A DNA stretch of 37,911 bases, from UHGV virus genome UHGV-0078433; one strand, given 5' to 3'. Positions 721 to 9,322 of this stretch are shown here, piece by piece (the stretch's first letter is position 1; each line of letters opens with the position of its first letter). Under the pieces are notes generated by a model. It searched no databases, was not told the DNA's origin, and saw only the letters and a program-made list of their open reading frames with translations. A program made the position numbers and the translations under genes. The DNA comes from a virus.

Positions 721-776
721 GTTTTAAAGGAGATGCAGATCAATGAGGCGATACCTATCAATAATCCCGGCTGGCG

Positions 777-2606
777 TTACACCTGACCAAGGTCCTCTAC
801 GCTTTCCTGATCATTCAGCAAGGTAATGGCAACAGCAATTGAGGAGAGGATAGTTTTGATTTCTATGGTGTTCATCCCTTCCTTTTCCCGGACGTACTCG
901 CATAATTTATCGACGTCAAATATCTCTCTGATGTTTGTATATTCGGCGGCTCTTTCAAGCAAGTGCACGATTTCTTCTCGCTGACCTTCGACAAATTGAG
1001 CCTGCCATGCTTGCACAGACCTTGGCGTGAATTTAACCCCGCTATCATAAGGAGCATCTGCGATATCAAGGCCAAATCTACCCTGCAATGATTTATCCCA
1101 TGTCGCATTCAAAAATGGCAGAGAAACTAATTCAGGAGCCAGCTTTGCCATGACGCTGTAGTGGAACAATTCTTTGTTCCTGGCCTCCGGACTGAGCTTG
1201 AATACCAAACGCGCAACTTTAGGAGAGAGAAGTGGCATCAGTTTAATTCTGCCTGTGACGTTCTGAGCAAGAGGGCCGTTCCAATTGGAAAGACGGTTTT
1301 CTACGAAGAACTTCTCAGGTAAAACATCAAACCTTACAGATTTAATATTCTCCTCAAGCCAGCCGTAGAACCAACCTATTTGAGCGTTTTTATACAAACT
1401 GGAGAGAATGTTTAATGGATCCATCTTCTGATGGTAGTTTATGAACTTAGAAAGAATTGCATCTTTATTGTCCATAAAGGACAGGTTTTTAAACTGCTTG
1501 GCGTGTCCGCCGGGTCCGCGATATAGCTCGCCGCCAAAGCCAGTCATATCGGACGTTATATTTTTGATGGTGCGTTCAGCTGTTGCTCCATCCCATGGGC
1601 AAATATAACTTTCCATTCTGTAGGAATGCCAGTTAAGTTTTTCCCATGAATTAGCAAAATCCTGAGCTTTAACTTGTGGAGCCTTAACGTTAGCGACGTG
1701 CTTAACGCCGATTTTGCTGGCTATGTTCTGAGCGCAACTTATCTCCGGGCTTCCTTCCGGTCCGTTCGTAAATGTGGTAATCCTGTCTTTGAATCCTGCA
1801 CCCAATGCCAGTGCAAGGACAAGACGAGAGTCCTTACCACCGGTCAGTGATAAGCGGAGTTCACCGGGAATGTTTTCACTCGCAGCCTTAAAGTTTTTCA
1901 CCAATTCATCTACGATCAAATCCCAGTCATCACCTGAAAGGTCATTTAGATATTCAGCATCCTCACTTGAAGGCCAGATCTGATTCTTAAATTTATTGAT
2001 ATTTACTGTTGTTGAACCGATTGGTGACTTTAAATAGCTACCTGCCGTGATTGTATTTACACCTTCAAATGGTGTTTCATTTCCAAATATATTGGCATGC
2101 CCAATCAACCAGCTCAATGAGGAAAGGTTATATTTACCATTGCCTCGTAATTCATGTAATGCAGATGCTCTGTTACTTACGCAGGTCACACCATCAATTA
2201 TTGTGTAATAAATAGGACAGGTGCCTGAGAAATCGCCGAAAGCAAGGAGGCCATTCTTGGAGGTTATTGAAACGAAGTTGTAAGACCCGGAAATATTGTC
2301 AAACATGTATTCCGCATCGTTTTTTGTGGAGGCATCAAGTGCGGCGTCAGACACGTCATAGCTATCCCCCATCCTTAAAACAGGGCCATTTATCAGGCAT
2401 ACGCCGCTTTGCTTAGATGTTATTCTTTTTGATATTTCGCCTTCCGCATTGCCACATGCTGTATATGCCCAAGCTCCGCTACCAGATATTTTATTAGCCA
2501 CCTCTACTGGCTTAAATGTTAAGTTCCTTTTTAGGGCCTGCTGCGCTGTCTCGTATAATTTCTTAACAGACTCGCTTTTTCCATTTAAAACAATAAAGTT
2601 TATCAT
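777..2606 (-). CDS. Asparagine synthetase (AsnB)-family PP-loop protein with GATase-like N-domain lacking the N-terminal Cys nucleophile
   Basis: 609-aa ORF; PP-loop LSLTGGKDS; AsnB-like motifs GDFSGTCPIYYT and AGSYL; residue 2 is Ile not Cys; visibly AT-rich versus neighbours. Confidence 0.8.
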   Translation of the reverse strand: MINFIVLNGKSESVKKLYETAQQALKRNLTFKPVEVANKISGSGAWAYTACGNAEGEISKRITSKQSGVCLINGPVLRMGDSYDVSDAALDASTKNDAEYMFDNISGSYNFVSITSKNGLLAFGDFSGTCPIYYTIIDGVTCVSNRASALHELRGNGKYNLSSLSWLIGHANIFGNETPFEGVNTITAGSYLKSPIGSTTVNINKFKNQIWPSSEDAEYLNDLSGDDWDLIVDELVKNFKAASENIPGELRLSLTGGKDSRLVLALALGAGFKDRITTFTNGPEGSPEISCAQNIASKIGVKHVANVKAPQVKAQDFANSWEKLNWHSYRMESYICPWDGATAERTIKNITSDMTGFGGELYRGPGGHAKQFKNLSFMDNKDAILSKFINYHQKMDPLNILSSLYKNAQIGWFYGWLEENIKSVRFDVLPEKFFVENRLSNWNGPLAQNVTGRIKLMPLLSPKVARLVFKLSPEARNKELFHYSVMAKLAPELVSLPFLNATWDKSLQGRFGLDIADAPYDSGVKFTPRSVQAWQAQFVEGQREEIVHLLERAAEYTNIREIFDVDKLCEYVREKEGMNTIEIKTILSSIAVAITLLNDQESVEDLGQV

Positions 2607-2871
2607 TTAATTCCCGCGCAAGATAATTGGCAATATTTAAAGTTGATAACTATTTGGTTAACAGAGTAAACAACCAAGATTGTGCAATACTTGCTAGGAC
2701 GGGTCAATGATTTGTGTGTGGTTTTGGGGTCTAACCACTAATTTTGATATCAGTAGTGAATTTTACAAATGCAGGATTGAGGGTGCTCTTGCGCCACCAA
2801 AAGATGCGAATATGACGTAGCGAAAGCACCCTCTCTGTTTGGGTAGGATTGACGATTAGTGCATCAGAAAG

Positions 2872-5358
2872 CTACTTTGCTTCGAGATTTCCCACTCGTT
2901 CAGCCAGAGCCTCAAACTGCGATAGCAGCCTTTGATGATTACGACGATGAAGGGCAGCCTCCATCACTAATGCCTCCTCATATCGAATGCCATAGCGTGA
3001 TCCCGCTTCAACCGCCGGAACTACTACATCGCCAGTCTCTTCATCAAGAACTTCTGGTGAGCTTTCCCACTTGTCATAACAGAAGAAAGCAAACTGGTGA
3101 GGATCAAGTCCATGACGGATAAACGCTTCTTGCGCACGCTGGGCAATAATGCCGACATGCCAACGGGCTCCATCATCTCCCTTTGCCTCTATACGGTCAA
3201 TGAACTGGAACTGCACGAAATCTACTTCCGCCCAGGCATCCAGAATATCATCTGCGTACGGCGCTTCCATTAACCGTGAATCTGTCGTTTGGACGGGTTC
3301 GAGAGAACCACGAGCCAGCATCACTGGACGCGATTTTTGCCTTTCATCGGAGGTGACAGTATACGCAGCCTGAGTGAATCCGCCCGCAAATGGACTTGAA
3401 CTGGTACCAACAGTTCTGGTGTTAGCGGCGCTGGGCTGGATATTGCCGTTTACGCTCATGTTGGTGTTGATATTTACGACAGCAGAAGCAAAGCGTGCAA
3501 CTTCAGTACCGGCCGACGCTTCAGTTGATGAGACGTAGAGGCCGACAGCATTTTTACTAAGGACTGCGGTTCGGGCAAATCCACTAGAATCGCGGATCTC
3601 TCCGAGCCCAACTTGATAATCGTCAGACTGCGGGCCGGTAACGTTAGTGATGCAATGGAATACGCCACCCATTTGGTTAAACGGATCTGTCACGGATTCA
3701 AGATGAAGGCCATCTATAATGATCTTCCCGGTATTGCTACCCCCTGACTCTATGCCTACAGGGCAATTCCTTAACGTCACGTTGGTTAGTTTTTGATATT
3801 TCCTGTTCAGGCGTAAGGCAACATTGGTGTCTCTACACACAATATTGGTTACAGAACACGCCTCTGCATCACCAAACTGCCGATCACTGGCTCCGGAGGC
3901 TGTTGTTGTCTGGTATCCGGTTATTGCGTTAGCGCACTGAATATTTGATCCGTTGCAATATCGCTCCTCAATCCACACTGAAGCCCCAATTCTTCCGCCA
4001 TCATATCCGAGACATGATATATTGCTGTAATTGACGAATGGGGATTTAATATGGAGCCCGATGATGTCTGAATCAGTGGATTTAAATCGGTTCTGAATGA
4101 CTGTGATGTTTGTAACATCACTCCATACACCGCCAGTTCCACGACTGACGGTATCGCCAATGATCCCCTGCTTGATACGGACGCCAGCGCCGGGCGCTCC
4201 GACGTTACCAAAGTCTGACACATAAACGTTCGATACCTTCGGCGCCAATGACATTACGTCAACGCCTGCCCAAGGGTGGGCTGGCTCGTCAAGTTGCCCG
4301 AAGTTGAAAACGAAGATGTTATTTAATTGAAACGCGCGACTGACAGACCCATTATCCTTAATGTCGATACCATCTGCGCCGGTGTTTTCAGACCAGAATC
4401 CGTCGATGCTGCAGCCCTTATACCCGCCATTCTGAAGACCCAAGGCATAATGAGAGCAGTTCTTTACCTTGAGGCCGCGAATTGTAAGCCCCTCGATTCC
4501 TGCTCCGACAATGCCTTCAGTTTGCCGGGCGTAAGGAGTACCATTCCATAAGTAATTCCCGTCGATACAAATATCTTGAAGGCCGACGCCCCTTACTTTT
4601 GTGGTGCCGTTTTCGAGCGGTGGCTTTGACCACTGTATTACCCCATATGCAGCATCTGTGTTGTAAGCTCTTATAGTAGTAGAGTTCCATCCCTGCCCAC
4701 GGAGAATAATGTTGTCAAATGGGATGCGCAAAGCAGCAACGTTTAACGTTGCGTTGGCAGAGCTAAATTCAGTCGGATCCTGATGCACCATGTATAAGGG
4801 CCGCGGGAATACAATCGTGCCCCCGCCGGCTGCACTGAGTTCCTGCGCCTTCTGCATTATCAGTCTTGCGTTCTGCAGGGCGACAACCTGGCTAACAACC
4901 CCAGGGATTACGCCAAATGAATCAGCGGTTATTTCAATGCCACCAATTAATGACGAGCCGGTACTGGAGCTTAATCTCTGGACAAAAGAAAACGGATCAA
5001 CCAGGGAGCAATTTTCAAAATAGTATTGCTGAGCCCCATAAGCATCGTAAACAGCCATGCTGTAATCACTTTCAGTGACTATGGTTACAACCTGGCCATT
5101 ATATACTGGGTAACCTGAGGAATTAATTTTAACTGGCTGGCTGATCTGCACCAGGGAGCCATTTTCATTCCTGAAATAAACCGCTACCCTATTGGCTGGA
5201 TTTGTTGGATCCGTGTCAGGAACACCAACATAAATATTACCGTTTGCGATAGCTTTAAAGCTTCTCGGCGTAATAAATGGGATGTACGGCATTGTTACTT
5301 GCTGGTTGGCAATGATATCTGGCATTTGCTGTTCTCCAGGTGCAGAAAAGCCGCACAA
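2872..5358 (-). CDS. Tailspike: P22 gp9-like head-binding N-domain, beta-helix depolymerase-like centre, C-terminal self-cleaving chaperone (S74-type) domain
   Basis: N-terminal ~110 aa resemble P22 tailspike N-terminus (recall); repetitive beta-helix-like middle; SDERQK motif followed by ~150-aa chaperone-like tail. Confidence 0.85.
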   Translation of the reverse strand: MCGFSAPGEQQMPDIIANQQVTMPYIPFITPRSFKAIANGNIYVGVPDTDPTNPANRVAVYFRNENGSLVQISQPVKINSSGYPVYNGQVVTIVTESDYSMAVYDAYGAQQYYFENCSLVDPFSFVQRLSSSTGSSLIGGIEITADSFGVIPGVVSQVVALQNARLIMQKAQELSAAGGGTIVFPRPLYMVHQDPTEFSSANATLNVAALRIPFDNIILRGQGWNSTTIRAYNTDAAYGVIQWSKPPLENGTTKVRGVGLQDICIDGNYLWNGTPYARQTEGIVGAGIEGLTIRGLKVKNCSHYALGLQNGGYKGCSIDGFWSENTGADGIDIKDNGSVSRAFQLNNIFVFNFGQLDEPAHPWAGVDVMSLAPKVSNVYVSDFGNVGAPGAGVRIKQGIIGDTVSRGTGGVWSDVTNITVIQNRFKSTDSDIIGLHIKSPFVNYSNISCLGYDGGRIGASVWIEERYCNGSNIQCANAITGYQTTTASGASDRQFGDAEACSVTNIVCRDTNVALRLNRKYQKLTNVTLRNCPVGIESGGSNTGKIIIDGLHLESVTDPFNQMGGVFHCITNVTGPQSDDYQVGLGEIRDSSGFARTAVLSKNAVGLYVSSTEASAGTEVARFASAVVNINTNMSVNGNIQPSAANTRTVGTSSSPFAGGFTQAAYTVTSDERQKSRPVMLARGSLEPVQTTDSRLMEAPYADDILDAWAEVDFVQFQFIDRIEAKGDDGARWHVGIIAQRAQEAFIRHGLDPHQFAFFCYDKWESSPEVLDEETGDVVVPAVEAGSRYGIRYEEALVMEAALHRRNHQRLLSQFEALAERVGNLEAK

Positions 5359-5437
5359 GCTAAAACTTGCGCAGCGTGGCTACGGTTAGTTTTTTGTGAT
5401 AAAACAACTTTTTCGGAAGTTATTTTGTTCGCTTTTC

Positions 5438-5460
5438 GACCTACACTTTTTGTGTAGGTC
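5438..5460. promoter_or_regulatory. Perfect palindrome GACCTACAC-TTTTT-GTGTAGGTC, candidate operator for the adjacent Mnt-like repressor
   Basis: 9-bp arms, 5-nt spacer, between tailspike start and mnt start; no U-tract on either strand so not an intrinsic terminator. Confidence 0.35.
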
Positions 5461-5583
5461 TCTCCTTCAAGCTCATTGCCTAAGCGTGGCTACGGTTGGT
5501 ATTTGTTGCATACCGAGACGGTACCATTGTTGATTTGTACAGTAGGTTTTACGATGCCATTCCACCCATTTGGTGAGGCATTG

Positions 5584-5847
5584 ATGATGTACAGCAAATA
5601 CGATGAGGCGCAGTTCCACTTGAGGCTTACGCACGAGTTGCACGCTAAGATTAAGCAGCGTGCGAAGATGAATAACAGGTCGCTGAACTCAGAGATAATT
5701 GCAGCGATTGAAGAATCATTGGATAAACAAAGCTCTGCATCAGTTTACATTGACGATGCAGAGCGTATGGCAGAACAACAATCTGATATGGTTAAGAAAA
5801 TTGTCTTTGATACGCTCAAGGAGCTATATAAAAAAGACTGCAACTAA
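5584..5847 (+). CDS. mnt: Mnt-like ribbon-helix-helix repressor (Arc/MetJ family)
   Basis: FHLRLTHELHAKIKQRAKMNNRSLNSEII and C-terminal DAERMAEQQSDMVKKIVFDTLKELYKK resemble P22 Mnt (recall); start set at internal MMYSKYDE rather than track start 5476. Confidence 0.75.
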   Translation: MMYSKYDEAQFHLRLTHELHAKIKQRAKMNNRSLNSEIIAAIEESLDKQSSASVYIDDAERMAEQQSDMVKKIVFDTLKELYKKDCN

Positions 5848-5936: not shown

Positions 5937-7934
5937 CTATTCTGACAACGCATCAGACTTAGCGCCTTGGGTCAGCGCGTTAATTGCCTTTTGTGCCTGC
6001 TGCAAGGCTTTCTCAAACGCTGTTGATCCGCGTTGGGTGTTTGCCATTCGGAGCATTGCATTTCTGAATGGCTCGCTCTCATAGGCGCGAGCAAGAAGTC
6101 CGTAGCTTACTGCTGCGCCAGTTGTCGCCGGGTTCATTGCCGTCCCATACCCAATAATGAACGGGATAGTTTGCTGCCCTGTGGGTGTTGTTACTGCCGC
6201 TTTTGCAGCCTGCTGCGTGGATTGCAGGTAGTTTTTTAATCCTTTCAGATAAGCAGCGTCCTGCCCCTTAAATGTGATGCCAGTCTGGTTTTGCAGGATA
6301 TTAAGCTGCCGAAGGAACTGGTCAGGGGATCCACCTGATTTCTCCATCGCCTTTCCAATGATGCCATTGCGCATTTGCGCCCTGCCAACACGGCCAACTG
6401 AGTTGTACAGCGTCTTAATTTCCGATTTGTTCTTGCTGAATAGCATGTTGTTGACAACTTCCGGAGTAAGATCTCCTTTAATGAGAACATTCTTCAGCCG
6501 GGTATTCTTTAGTTTCGCCGCTTCGTCAGCGTAGACGGCATTGGCCTGCTGATATTTACGGAGAGTATCGTTGCCAAGATTCTGACCAATGGCACCATTG
6601 ATATCGTCGGTCATCGCCTTGTAAACGCGCTGAATGGCAGCATCGGAACGGTTTGGTAACACTGGTCGCTCACCCTTCACGTCCATTCTGAACTGGCTGC
6701 GCAGATCGCTTAATTGCTTCAAGTCCAGATTTACCGGACCATCAGGGCCAGCATTGCGAACAAGCTCATCACGATATGACTGAAGTTTTGAAATGGTCTC
6801 GTTATCAGCGACCTTACCAAGCTTCTGCAGATTAGATATCTCGGTATCAATCTGCTGAATTGCTCGCGCAGGATGAATGTTTACTCCAGCCATAGCATTC
6901 TGAACCTGCTCCAGTCGATTACCGGCGGCACGACGAATTCCTGATGTTTTCGCTTTAAGGCTGTCAATAACAACTGCTGGATCATACTCACCGAATTTAT
7001 CAGCAAATCTCTGCACCAACTGGCTTCTCGCTTCCTGTTGCGTTGCTCTCATTCCGCTTGTGCCAGCCAGGGGGATATTTTCCGCTGTCGTCTGCGCCAT
7101 TTTCCCGACGCGGGAAGTAGGCTGTAACAGGTCTGTGGTGTGCAGAGGAACTCCTTCACGCTCTGCAAATCTGATAGCCTGCTGCGCTTCTGGCGCAATA
7201 GCACCACGAACGCCACGATAAGCAGCACCTAATCCACGTCCGGCAGCGTTAATAGCACCGCCAGCCAGCACACCAACGCCTAAATCGGTGGCGAGGGCTT
7301 CCGCATCATCTTTCGCACTATTTGCAGCAAGTGATCCAACTGCGTTTTCAGCGAGAAGACGAGTTGCCCCCTGAGCAATTCGACCAGCAAGTGTTGGTGC
7401 CTGTGTTGCCGCTCTCTCAATGCCAGCAGGAGTGAGGTAAGGCAATGCCTCAGCAAATACCCTTCCCTCTGTAGTTTGTGGAGTCAGCGCGCCTTGCTGA
7501 AGGCCAAAGTCCTGCTCTAATCCCTGCGTTGTTACTCGTGGCGCTGGTTGATATGTACCATCACCAATACCGAGTTTACCGCCAGCCCATGCCGCCGCGC
7601 TTGTTACAGCATCGGCAACTGATGCAGGTATGTTTGCCACGTTCACGCCAGCCTGTACCAGTCCGCGACCAGTCTCTTTTACTGCTTCGCCAAGATCAGA
7701 CATAAATCCACTTTGCTGTGGTTGTTGCTGTGCTACTGGCTGTTGTGTCTCCACTGGCTGCACTGATGGCAATGGATAGGCAGCATAGAAAGCTTGCTTA
7801 GCCTGCTCTGCATTTTCTCCGGCTTGCGGGGCCACGACTTCATTGAAGTATTGCTCCTGAGCCTGCGCTTTTTGTTCTGGTGCTAACGCCTGATACTGTG
7901 GAGAGGCGATAACATCTTTCCATGCTTTAGCCAT
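5937..7934 (-). CDS. Ejection/injection protein, P22 gp16-like
   Basis: 665-aa Ala/Gln-rich protein at the gp16 position in P22 gene order 7-20-16. Confidence 0.75.
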   Translation of the reverse strand: MAKAWKDVIASPQYQALAPEQKAQAQEQYFNEVVAPQAGENAEQAKQAFYAAYPLPSVQPVETQQPVAQQQPQQSGFMSDLGEAVKETGRGLVQAGVNVANIPASVADAVTSAAAWAGGKLGIGDGTYQPAPRVTTQGLEQDFGLQQGALTPQTTEGRVFAEALPYLTPAGIERAATQAPTLAGRIAQGATRLLAENAVGSLAANSAKDDAEALATDLGVGVLAGGAINAAGRGLGAAYRGVRGAIAPEAQQAIRFAEREGVPLHTTDLLQPTSRVGKMAQTTAENIPLAGTSGMRATQQEARSQLVQRFADKFGEYDPAVVIDSLKAKTSGIRRAAGNRLEQVQNAMAGVNIHPARAIQQIDTEISNLQKLGKVADNETISKLQSYRDELVRNAGPDGPVNLDLKQLSDLRSQFRMDVKGERPVLPNRSDAAIQRVYKAMTDDINGAIGQNLGNDTLRKYQQANAVYADEAAKLKNTRLKNVLIKGDLTPEVVNNMLFSKNKSEIKTLYNSVGRVGRAQMRNGIIGKAMEKSGGSPDQFLRQLNILQNQTGITFKGQDAAYLKGLKNYLQSTQQAAKAAVTTPTGQQTIPFIIGYGTAMNPATTGAAVSYGLLARAYESEPFRNAMLRMANTQRGSTAFEKALQQAQKAINALTQGAKSDALSE

Positions 7935-9322
7935 TAATCACCCCATAGTGAAGAAAAGTTACTGCTGGCTGCTGGCTGTGATACCTGTGCAGGTTGAGAT
8001 TTCTGCCGCTGAGATTTACCAACATCAACGTTATATTGTTGATTGTAATTGTTGGTGTATTCCTGAATCTCACGAATCGACTGCTGCATAGCCTCCGGGC
8101 TTGAATAGTCAACCTGCGGCATCCCCTGAAAATACATCTTCGCTTCTGCAACGGTGTTAATACCACTGGCACCCATATCCCTTGCTGCCGCCACACCCTG
8201 ATTCTGCATTCTGCCCTGAATACGTTGTGCTGAGTTATATAACTGGCGCTGCTCTTTTCCTGTTAATCGGCTGCGAACATCAGCACCAATTGCTGGATTA
8301 CCTGCACCGCCTGTCATTCCTGTCATGAAATCGAGAGCAGAAGCGTCTGCATTTGCGATCGCGTCGATATCCTTCTTCATGGCATAGTTTTGTGCTGATG
8401 CAGACGATGTTGCAGGCGCTGCGATTGAACTGGCAGGCACGCGAACCATATTCCCCTCGTTGTCGATGCCTTCGTAGAACGCATTAGCCCCAGCGCCGTG
8501 AAGTTTCCCGCCTACCGTTACAGTTCTGCCATCTGATAACTGAACTGTACGCTCATCATTCCCAGCGGTTCCTCTTGTTGACGCTCGCTGCATTGCCAAA
8601 TCCTGCCCGCGTCGCGCAGTAGAAGCAGATAAGTCCTGACCGCGCATCGTGATGTTCTGGCCTCGTGCTGTTAGCGCCTCGCCAGCCTGATTGCTGCGGA
8701 TTGTCTCTGCAAGTTTTCCGCGATCAATCTCACGACCAGCCATCTTGTCCTGAACATTGAAGTAATCAATTGGACCAAGAGCAGCCATCCCAAGGTGATC
8801 AACAAACTCACCAAATCCTGAAGGATTCTGCTGATACATCTGAGCAACGCTGTTAGGGTCAACACCGACGCGAGTCAGTTCCTTGGCGTTGTTTTGCAGC
8901 CATGATTGCATTGCTTCTGGAGACGATGACGCAAGGCGGGCGCCAGCCGCTAATGTGCCGATAGAATTACGCTGGTCTTCATCAATGAATCCCATGCCTT
9001 TACGAACGGATTCAATCTGGTCTGGATATTGAGTAGCCAACTGACGCAAAGCACCGCGATCACCAGACGCATAAGCATTAGCGTACGCCTGCTGAAATTC
9101 TTTCTGCCGCTGAGCCTGCTTTTCCTGCTGAAACACCCCCGCAATACCTGAAAGACCTTGCAAAGCAGTCAGCCCAACATTGTTAGCGCCTGAACGCTCA
9201 ATATCATTGTTCTGCCTGATAAGCTGAAGCGTATTGCCGATGTCATTTACGCTCGGAGCGTTTGAGTTGACGCCGCCGATACCAGCTAACAATCCGCCAT
9301 TTGATCCTTGCCAAGTAGCCAT
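7934..9322 (-). CDS. Ejection protein, P22 gp20-like
   Basis: 462 aa; synteny between gp7-like and gp16-like; start overlaps upstream stop. Confidence 0.75.

Follow-up and report, generated by a model that had tools for sequence, protein, structure and literature searches.

The tailspikes of phages P22, Sf6 and HK620 are O-antigen endorhamnosidases or endo-N-acetylglucosaminidases. Such tailspike bodies set which strains a phage infects, and they serve as starting points for depolymerase therapeutics and for reagents used in serotyping. The closest described parallel to the protein analysed here is the tailspike of CUS-3, an endosialidase of an E. coli K1 prophage, in which a P22-type anchor is likewise joined to a non-P22 depolymerase and to a self-cleaving S74 chaperone. 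The Ser/Lys dyad of S74 domains and their autoprocessing mechanism have been described (PMC3742443), and the anchor-swapped architecture is documented for Lederbergvirus/CUS-3-type prophages (PMC10408124). Spikes with an anchor and an S74 domain are already known from CUS-3, so that the architecture as such is textbook and will not surprise a specialist.

The gene considered here lies in a 37,911-nucleotide stretch of viral DNA (UHGV-0078433), called the window below. It very probably encodes the receptor-recognising tailspike of a P22-like temperate phage, built of three exchangeable modules, namely a gp9-type anchor, a beta-helix that binds and likely cleaves polysaccharide, and an S74 chaperone that is likely self-released, and its cassette travels with a putative glycan-modifying conversion gene. 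The initial annotation had described about 110 N-terminal residues resembling P22 gp9, a beta-helix-type body different from that of P22, an SDERQK motif and a C-terminal chaperone of about 150 residues that the P22 tailspike lacks. All of these elements were recovered in the present analysis, domain search and structure prediction having found both the S74 domain and the beta-helix.

Gene, prophage setting and particle anchor

The presence of a tailspike gene at this locus is confirmed. The coding sequence occupies 2872..5325 on the minus strand and specifies 817 residues plus stop, that is a precursor of 88.2 kDa. The mechanical open reading frame runs from 5358 to 2872 on the minus strand and opens at TTG 5358, a start that had been adopted initially and that is placed 33 nt too far upstream. 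The true start is almost certainly ATG 5325, because TTG 5358 falls within a terminator-like hairpin just upstream of the gene (5350..5375, minus strand) and because a ribosome-binding site read from the sequence, GGAGA (5333..5337, minus strand), precedes ATG 5325 by 7 nt. The same length of 817 residues was called in six independent public contigs (loci L010-L015), and the exact sequence is present in RefSeq as WP_250693330.1, 'phage tailspike protein [E. coli]'. Upstream, a stretch of 127 nt (about 5370-5496) shares 95% identity with the sequence that precedes P22 gene 9.

The gene is part of a complete temperate prophage of E. coli/Shigella of the P22/CUS-3-like (Lederbergvirus/CUS-3-type) kind, in which gp16 (5937-7934), gp20 (7934-9322), mnt (5590-5847), needle, portal, cI and int were all found. 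Within a P22-like virion module, the tailspike gene comes after gp7/gp20/gp16 and the immI region with mnt/arc, and this gene order around the tailspike is repeated in loci L001-L015. The CUS-3 prophage shares the backbone: of the 24.7 kb used as query, 63% aligned at about 96% identity.

Residues 1-115 (4981..5325, minus strand) form a head-binding domain of the P22 gp9 type. Pfam Head_binding (PF09008) was matched by residues 1-110 with an E value of 3.8e-39 and 133.9 bits (cut-off 24), over profile positions 1-110 of 113, and the N-terminal domain matched the solved structures of Sf6 gp14 (7.6e-37) and P22 gp9 (about 1e-28 to 1e-30). In the same way, Foldseek paired the anchor with 1lkt, 7sg7 and 8tvr at 52-57% identity. 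By homology to the Sf6 and P22 structures, this domain would dock the spike trimer on the gp4/gp10 tail hub. P22 gp9 could be aligned with the first 114 residues only, and therefore no match from P22 gp9 extends to the S74 domain. More generally, P22 gp9, Sf6 gp14 and HK620 have in common with this protein the anchor (E 1e-28 to 7.6e-37), the gene position after gp16/mnt and the right-handed beta-helix fold, whereas their bodies share no sequence similarity with it, matches being confined to the anchor with none to S74. The family alignment places the linker and module junction at residues 116-127 (4945..4980, minus strand); homology to receptor-binding proteins with other N-termini starts at about G128 (GGIEITADSFGV).

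The S74 chaperone and its predicted cleavage site

The distal beta-rich neck or stalk (residues 561-659; 3349..3645, minus strand), which has a low pLDDT as a monomer, ends at the predicted scissile Ser659, and its end is conserved with 9vvr and 6eu4 from residue 629 or so. The SDERQK motif (residues 659-664; 3334..3351, minus strand) is a predicted autoproteolysis motif with a serine nucleophile and a lysine base at i+5. It was aligned to SDARDK of 9vvr and SDARKK of 6eu4, and both Ser659 and Lys664 are invariant in an alignment of 25 family members.

The 158 residues after Ser659 (660-817; 2875..3348, minus strand) make up a Peptidase_S74 intramolecular chaperone that would give a fragment of 18.1 kDa if released. 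Residues 692-739 matched PF13884 (4.4e-10, 40.1 bits, cut-off 22). Among solved chaperones, residues 629-808 matched 9vvr (1.4e-43), 3gud of phi29 gp12 (8.4e-20) and 3gw6 of the K1F endosialidase (1.5e-14). Further solved homologues with a match are 7y5s, 6eu4 and 4uw8, and Foldseek against the PDB returned 3gw6 and 3gud for the C-terminus. In addition, R721 and G725 of an ARWHxG motif are invariant and correspond, by sequence alignment, to ARxHFG of 3gw6 and 3gud; they are candidate counterparts of the K1F catalytic Arg and G956. The S74 domain would nucleate trimerisation of the distal stalk and most likely cuts itself off after Ser659 by means of Ser659 and Lys664, leaving a mature subunit of 70 kDa.

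An unusual feature is a stretch inserted after the dyad and ahead of the chaperone core (residues 665-690; 3256..3333, minus strand), which carries a degenerate second motif devoid of lysine, T681-D-S-R-L-M686 (3268-3285, minus strand). It is about 20-23 residues long, so that K664 and L695 are 31 residues apart, compared with about 10 for the canonical distance from lysine to LDAW. The 843-residue tail spike protein 9vvr_A, the closest solved relative of the stalk end and chaperone, differs in having no such insertion, and its body is unmatched.

The insertion leads to another scenario, in which the chain is not released at Ser659 and is either cut at the second motif (Thr681) or left with its chaperone attached since the insertion disables processing. 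In line with it, the second motif and the ILDAW core are separated by the canonical distance, HMMER places the cleavage sites of K1F (3gw6) and 7y5s on this motif, and the insertion is missing from about half of the family, where the spacing between dyad and core is canonical. Nevertheless, the second motif never has the catalytic lysine across the family (M, I or Q is found there) and in this protein threonine replaces its serine, while Ser659 and Lys664 are invariant whether the insertion is present or absent and it is to this first site that SDxxxK of 9vvr and 6eu4 was aligned. Such a departure from cleavage at Ser659 is therefore considered improbable.

The beta-helix body and its candidate active site

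Receptor binding and depolymerisation are presumed to reside in residues 128-560 (3646..4944, minus strand). AlphaFold gave a mediocre model of the full-length chain (pLDDT 64.4), which was used for domain-level matches only, after which a model of the body alone was substituted (pLDDT 84.6, pTM 0.85, as a monomer). Structure prediction together with fold search gave a right-handed parallel beta-helix. The CUS-3 body is by contrast a sialidase beta-propeller with a stalk (PF12217, PF12218, PF12219, PF12195) and is unrelated in sequence. The CUS-3-type cluster P0086 contains PF09008 and PF13884; assignment to the CUS-3/K1F endosialidase type was rejected, as PF12217, PF12218 and PF12219 are present in P0086 and were undetected here.

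Searches of Pfam and the PDB with the single body sequence returned nothing, even at E<=10, and only a profile of the body family exposed a link to AlgE6 and AlgE4 (E 2.6e-14 and 2.5e-10). The profile search collected 1446 representatives at E<=1e-3; the body family itself, clustered at 90% identity, gives about 40 clusters, which lie among roughly 1400 more distant relatives. PF12708 was matched by 7 of 10 remote relatives sampled from this search and the query body has no Pfam match, so that membership of the PF12708/PF13229 superfamily is by transitive homology only. As judged from the model and the profile, the body belongs, as a diverged member, to the pectate-lyase-like/AlgE superfamily. 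The body family is of interest in that none of its members has been characterised, no Pfam model matches it and no isolated phage in INPHARED carries it. The lyase of coliphage K5A (KflA, 2x3h) and the Klebsiella K1 capsule lyases (7w1c, 9k4a) are 12-13% identical to the body and have other N-terminal adaptors.

Eight residues of the body, Y293, Q298, D318, D321, K323, D356, N366 and R383, form an invariant polar and charged column kept down to 25% identity and are candidates for the active site. Invariant Tyr293 corresponds in the alignment to Tyr149 of AlgE4, and Asp318 was aligned with the DG aspartate of the related epimerase 8xfq, which we take to be the equivalent of AlgE4 Asp178. On the other hand, the AlgE motif YG(F/I)DPH(D/E) reads HYALGLQN here, His154 being replaced by Gln298 and Asp152 by Gly296. 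Membership among AlgE-type mannuronan C-5 epimerases was rejected on account of this missing catalytic motif (DPH reads G-L-Q), and the protein is a homologue only. In contrast to the AlgE4/AlgE6 A-modules (2pyg, 5lw3), it has lost DPH(D/E) and is a predicted trimeric phage spike with a chaperone; no evidence obtained here makes the body an alginate enzyme. It would bind a surface polysaccharide and most likely cleave it, thereby opening the way to the outer membrane.

Module exchange, the linked enzyme and the candidate substrate

Bodies 55-73% identical to this one were found behind PF18668, PF12571, PF03906 and Calx-beta N-termini, and body and chaperone copies in the same range stand behind podovirus, siphovirus and myovirus adaptors in Escherichia, Leclercia and Aeromonas, the myovirus contexts being P2/HP1-like. 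Sequence comparison thus indicates that body and chaperone are a shuffled cassette moving between the receptor-binding proteins of the three morphotypes. This module exchange favours the swapped receptor specificity suggested by the initial annotation. Its term 'chimeric' holds for the modular architecture and not for any unusual event, such exchange being common and documented in Lederbergvirus/CUS-3-type prophages (PMC10408124). A tblastn search of 50,697 phage genomes (INPHARED) gave for the body a best match of only 27% identity, in Aeromonas phage Tola. Among complete E. coli genomes, megablast matched the mnt/gp16 flank only, and distant blastn found a body homologue in 1 of 5426.

Downstream of the spike lies a gene of 43% GC (777..2606, minus strand) for a 609-residue asparagine-synthetase-like enzyme with a PP-loop and no N-terminal Cys. 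According to blastn breakpoints, the last 24 or so tailspike codons, the intergenic region and this moron gene constitute an exchangeable cassette (745..2943, minus strand), and in sister prophages 745..2943 is replaced by a hexapeptide acyltransferase cassette. A relation of the spike to its neighbouring cargo enzyme, which had been raised as a possibility, is supported by eight related contexts, five of which contain both and together span three genera and three phage morphotypes; in two others of the eight the hexapeptide acyltransferase occupies the enzyme's slot. Homologues of the enzyme at 54-56% identity are located in chromosomal polysaccharide biosynthesis and export loci containing export genes, glycosyltransferases, an acyltransferase, rml genes and ugd. 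The co-occurrence and these homologues support an action of spike and enzyme on the same glycan. The spike cassette travels with a presumed lysogenic-conversion gene, here the ATP-dependent asparagine-synthetase-like enzyme and elsewhere the acyltransferase, and its product most likely modifies the glycan attacked by the spike, so that lysogens are no longer substrates. The pair illustrates how receptor-binding and receptor-masking genes may move as one unit among podo-, sipho- and myoviruses, and the tight linkage to two alternative glycan-modifying morons offers an experimental route to the receptor and to the function of the enzyme.

As a tentative working sub-hypothesis, the substrate of the body may be a uronic-acid glycan cut by beta-elimination. 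A possibility of the same weight is that the body acts as an ordinary O-antigen endoglycosidase with serogroup specificity, an acidic-residue hydrolase comparable to those of P22, Sf6 and HK620, rather than a lyase of acidic glycans. Spikes of P22-like E. coli prophages usually follow the O serogroup (PMC10408124), the invariant D318, D321, D356 and E313 could provide a hydrolase pair, the fold also strongly matches GH87, GH28 and the HK620, Sf6 and CBA120 tailspikes, and the histidine that transfers protons in AlgE is absent. The lyase reading is favoured by the uronate-acting epimerases and lyases, which are the body's best matches in structure and its only ones in sequence, by the invariant Lys323 and Arg383 adjoining the retained AlgE tyrosine, and by the linked enzyme, which is of a carboxylate-adenylating type and has one chromosomal homologue a few genes from ugd. 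Near-identical spikes in E. coli, S. sonnei and S. flexneri records argue, weakly, against a single O type. It seems quite improbable that the beta-helix is an adhesin alone, which would bind its receptor, glycan or protein, and leave it uncut. The body does lack a recognised catalytic motif or Pfam match and some of its fold neighbours are non-enzymatic (PfbA, NosD and Vag8 among them), but an invariant polar and charged column kept to such low identity is typical of an active-site groove. Moreover, to our knowledge, virtually all characterised P22-type spikes are receptor-destroying.

The 609-residue enzyme might be an unrelated moron, for instance a defence or metabolic gene, linked to the spike by nothing more than a common recombination hotspot. 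Downstream of the spike there is indeed a known hotspot for morons, where one relative has a reverse transcriptase, and in the P2-like E. coli prophage that carries a body homologue the enzyme is not found next to it. This reading is nonetheless held to be rather unlikely. PADLOC, run on the enzyme and two small downstream ORFs, gave no match to a defence system, the chromosomal homologues at 54-56% identity sit inside polysaccharide loci, and the gene that takes the slot in other prophages encodes an acyltransferase, a classic type of glycan-modifying enzyme. In Aeromonas, furthermore, the enzyme lies in the lysogeny module of the same prophage, more than 20 kb from the fibre, which rules out mere hitch-hiking by adjacency. 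Bolder and somewhat less probable still is the proposal that spike and enzyme are a co-evolving pair for attack and masking, in which the spike cuts a uronate glycan by beta-elimination, the enzyme, as a glutaminase-less PP-loop carboxylate adenylase, amidates or otherwise derivatises the carboxylate so that the lysogen's glycan is neither bound nor cut, and the acyltransferase is an interchangeable mask. Known routes of phage serotype conversion are glucosylation, O-acetylation and polymerase replacement, and the pair, if real, would represent a new biochemical class. Within the literature collection searched, no paper was found that connects an asparagine-synthase-like gene with tailspikes or seroconversion.

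Orthology of the 247-residue acyltransferase moron with the acyltransferases beside the chromosomal enzyme homologues was rejected, the similarity being the generic one of hexapeptide repeats (38-39% over about 60-70 residues). A block at 2994..2502 is shared with loci L006, L007 and L023. The reverse transcriptase, found in the downstream moron slot of L006, looks like the group II intron type.

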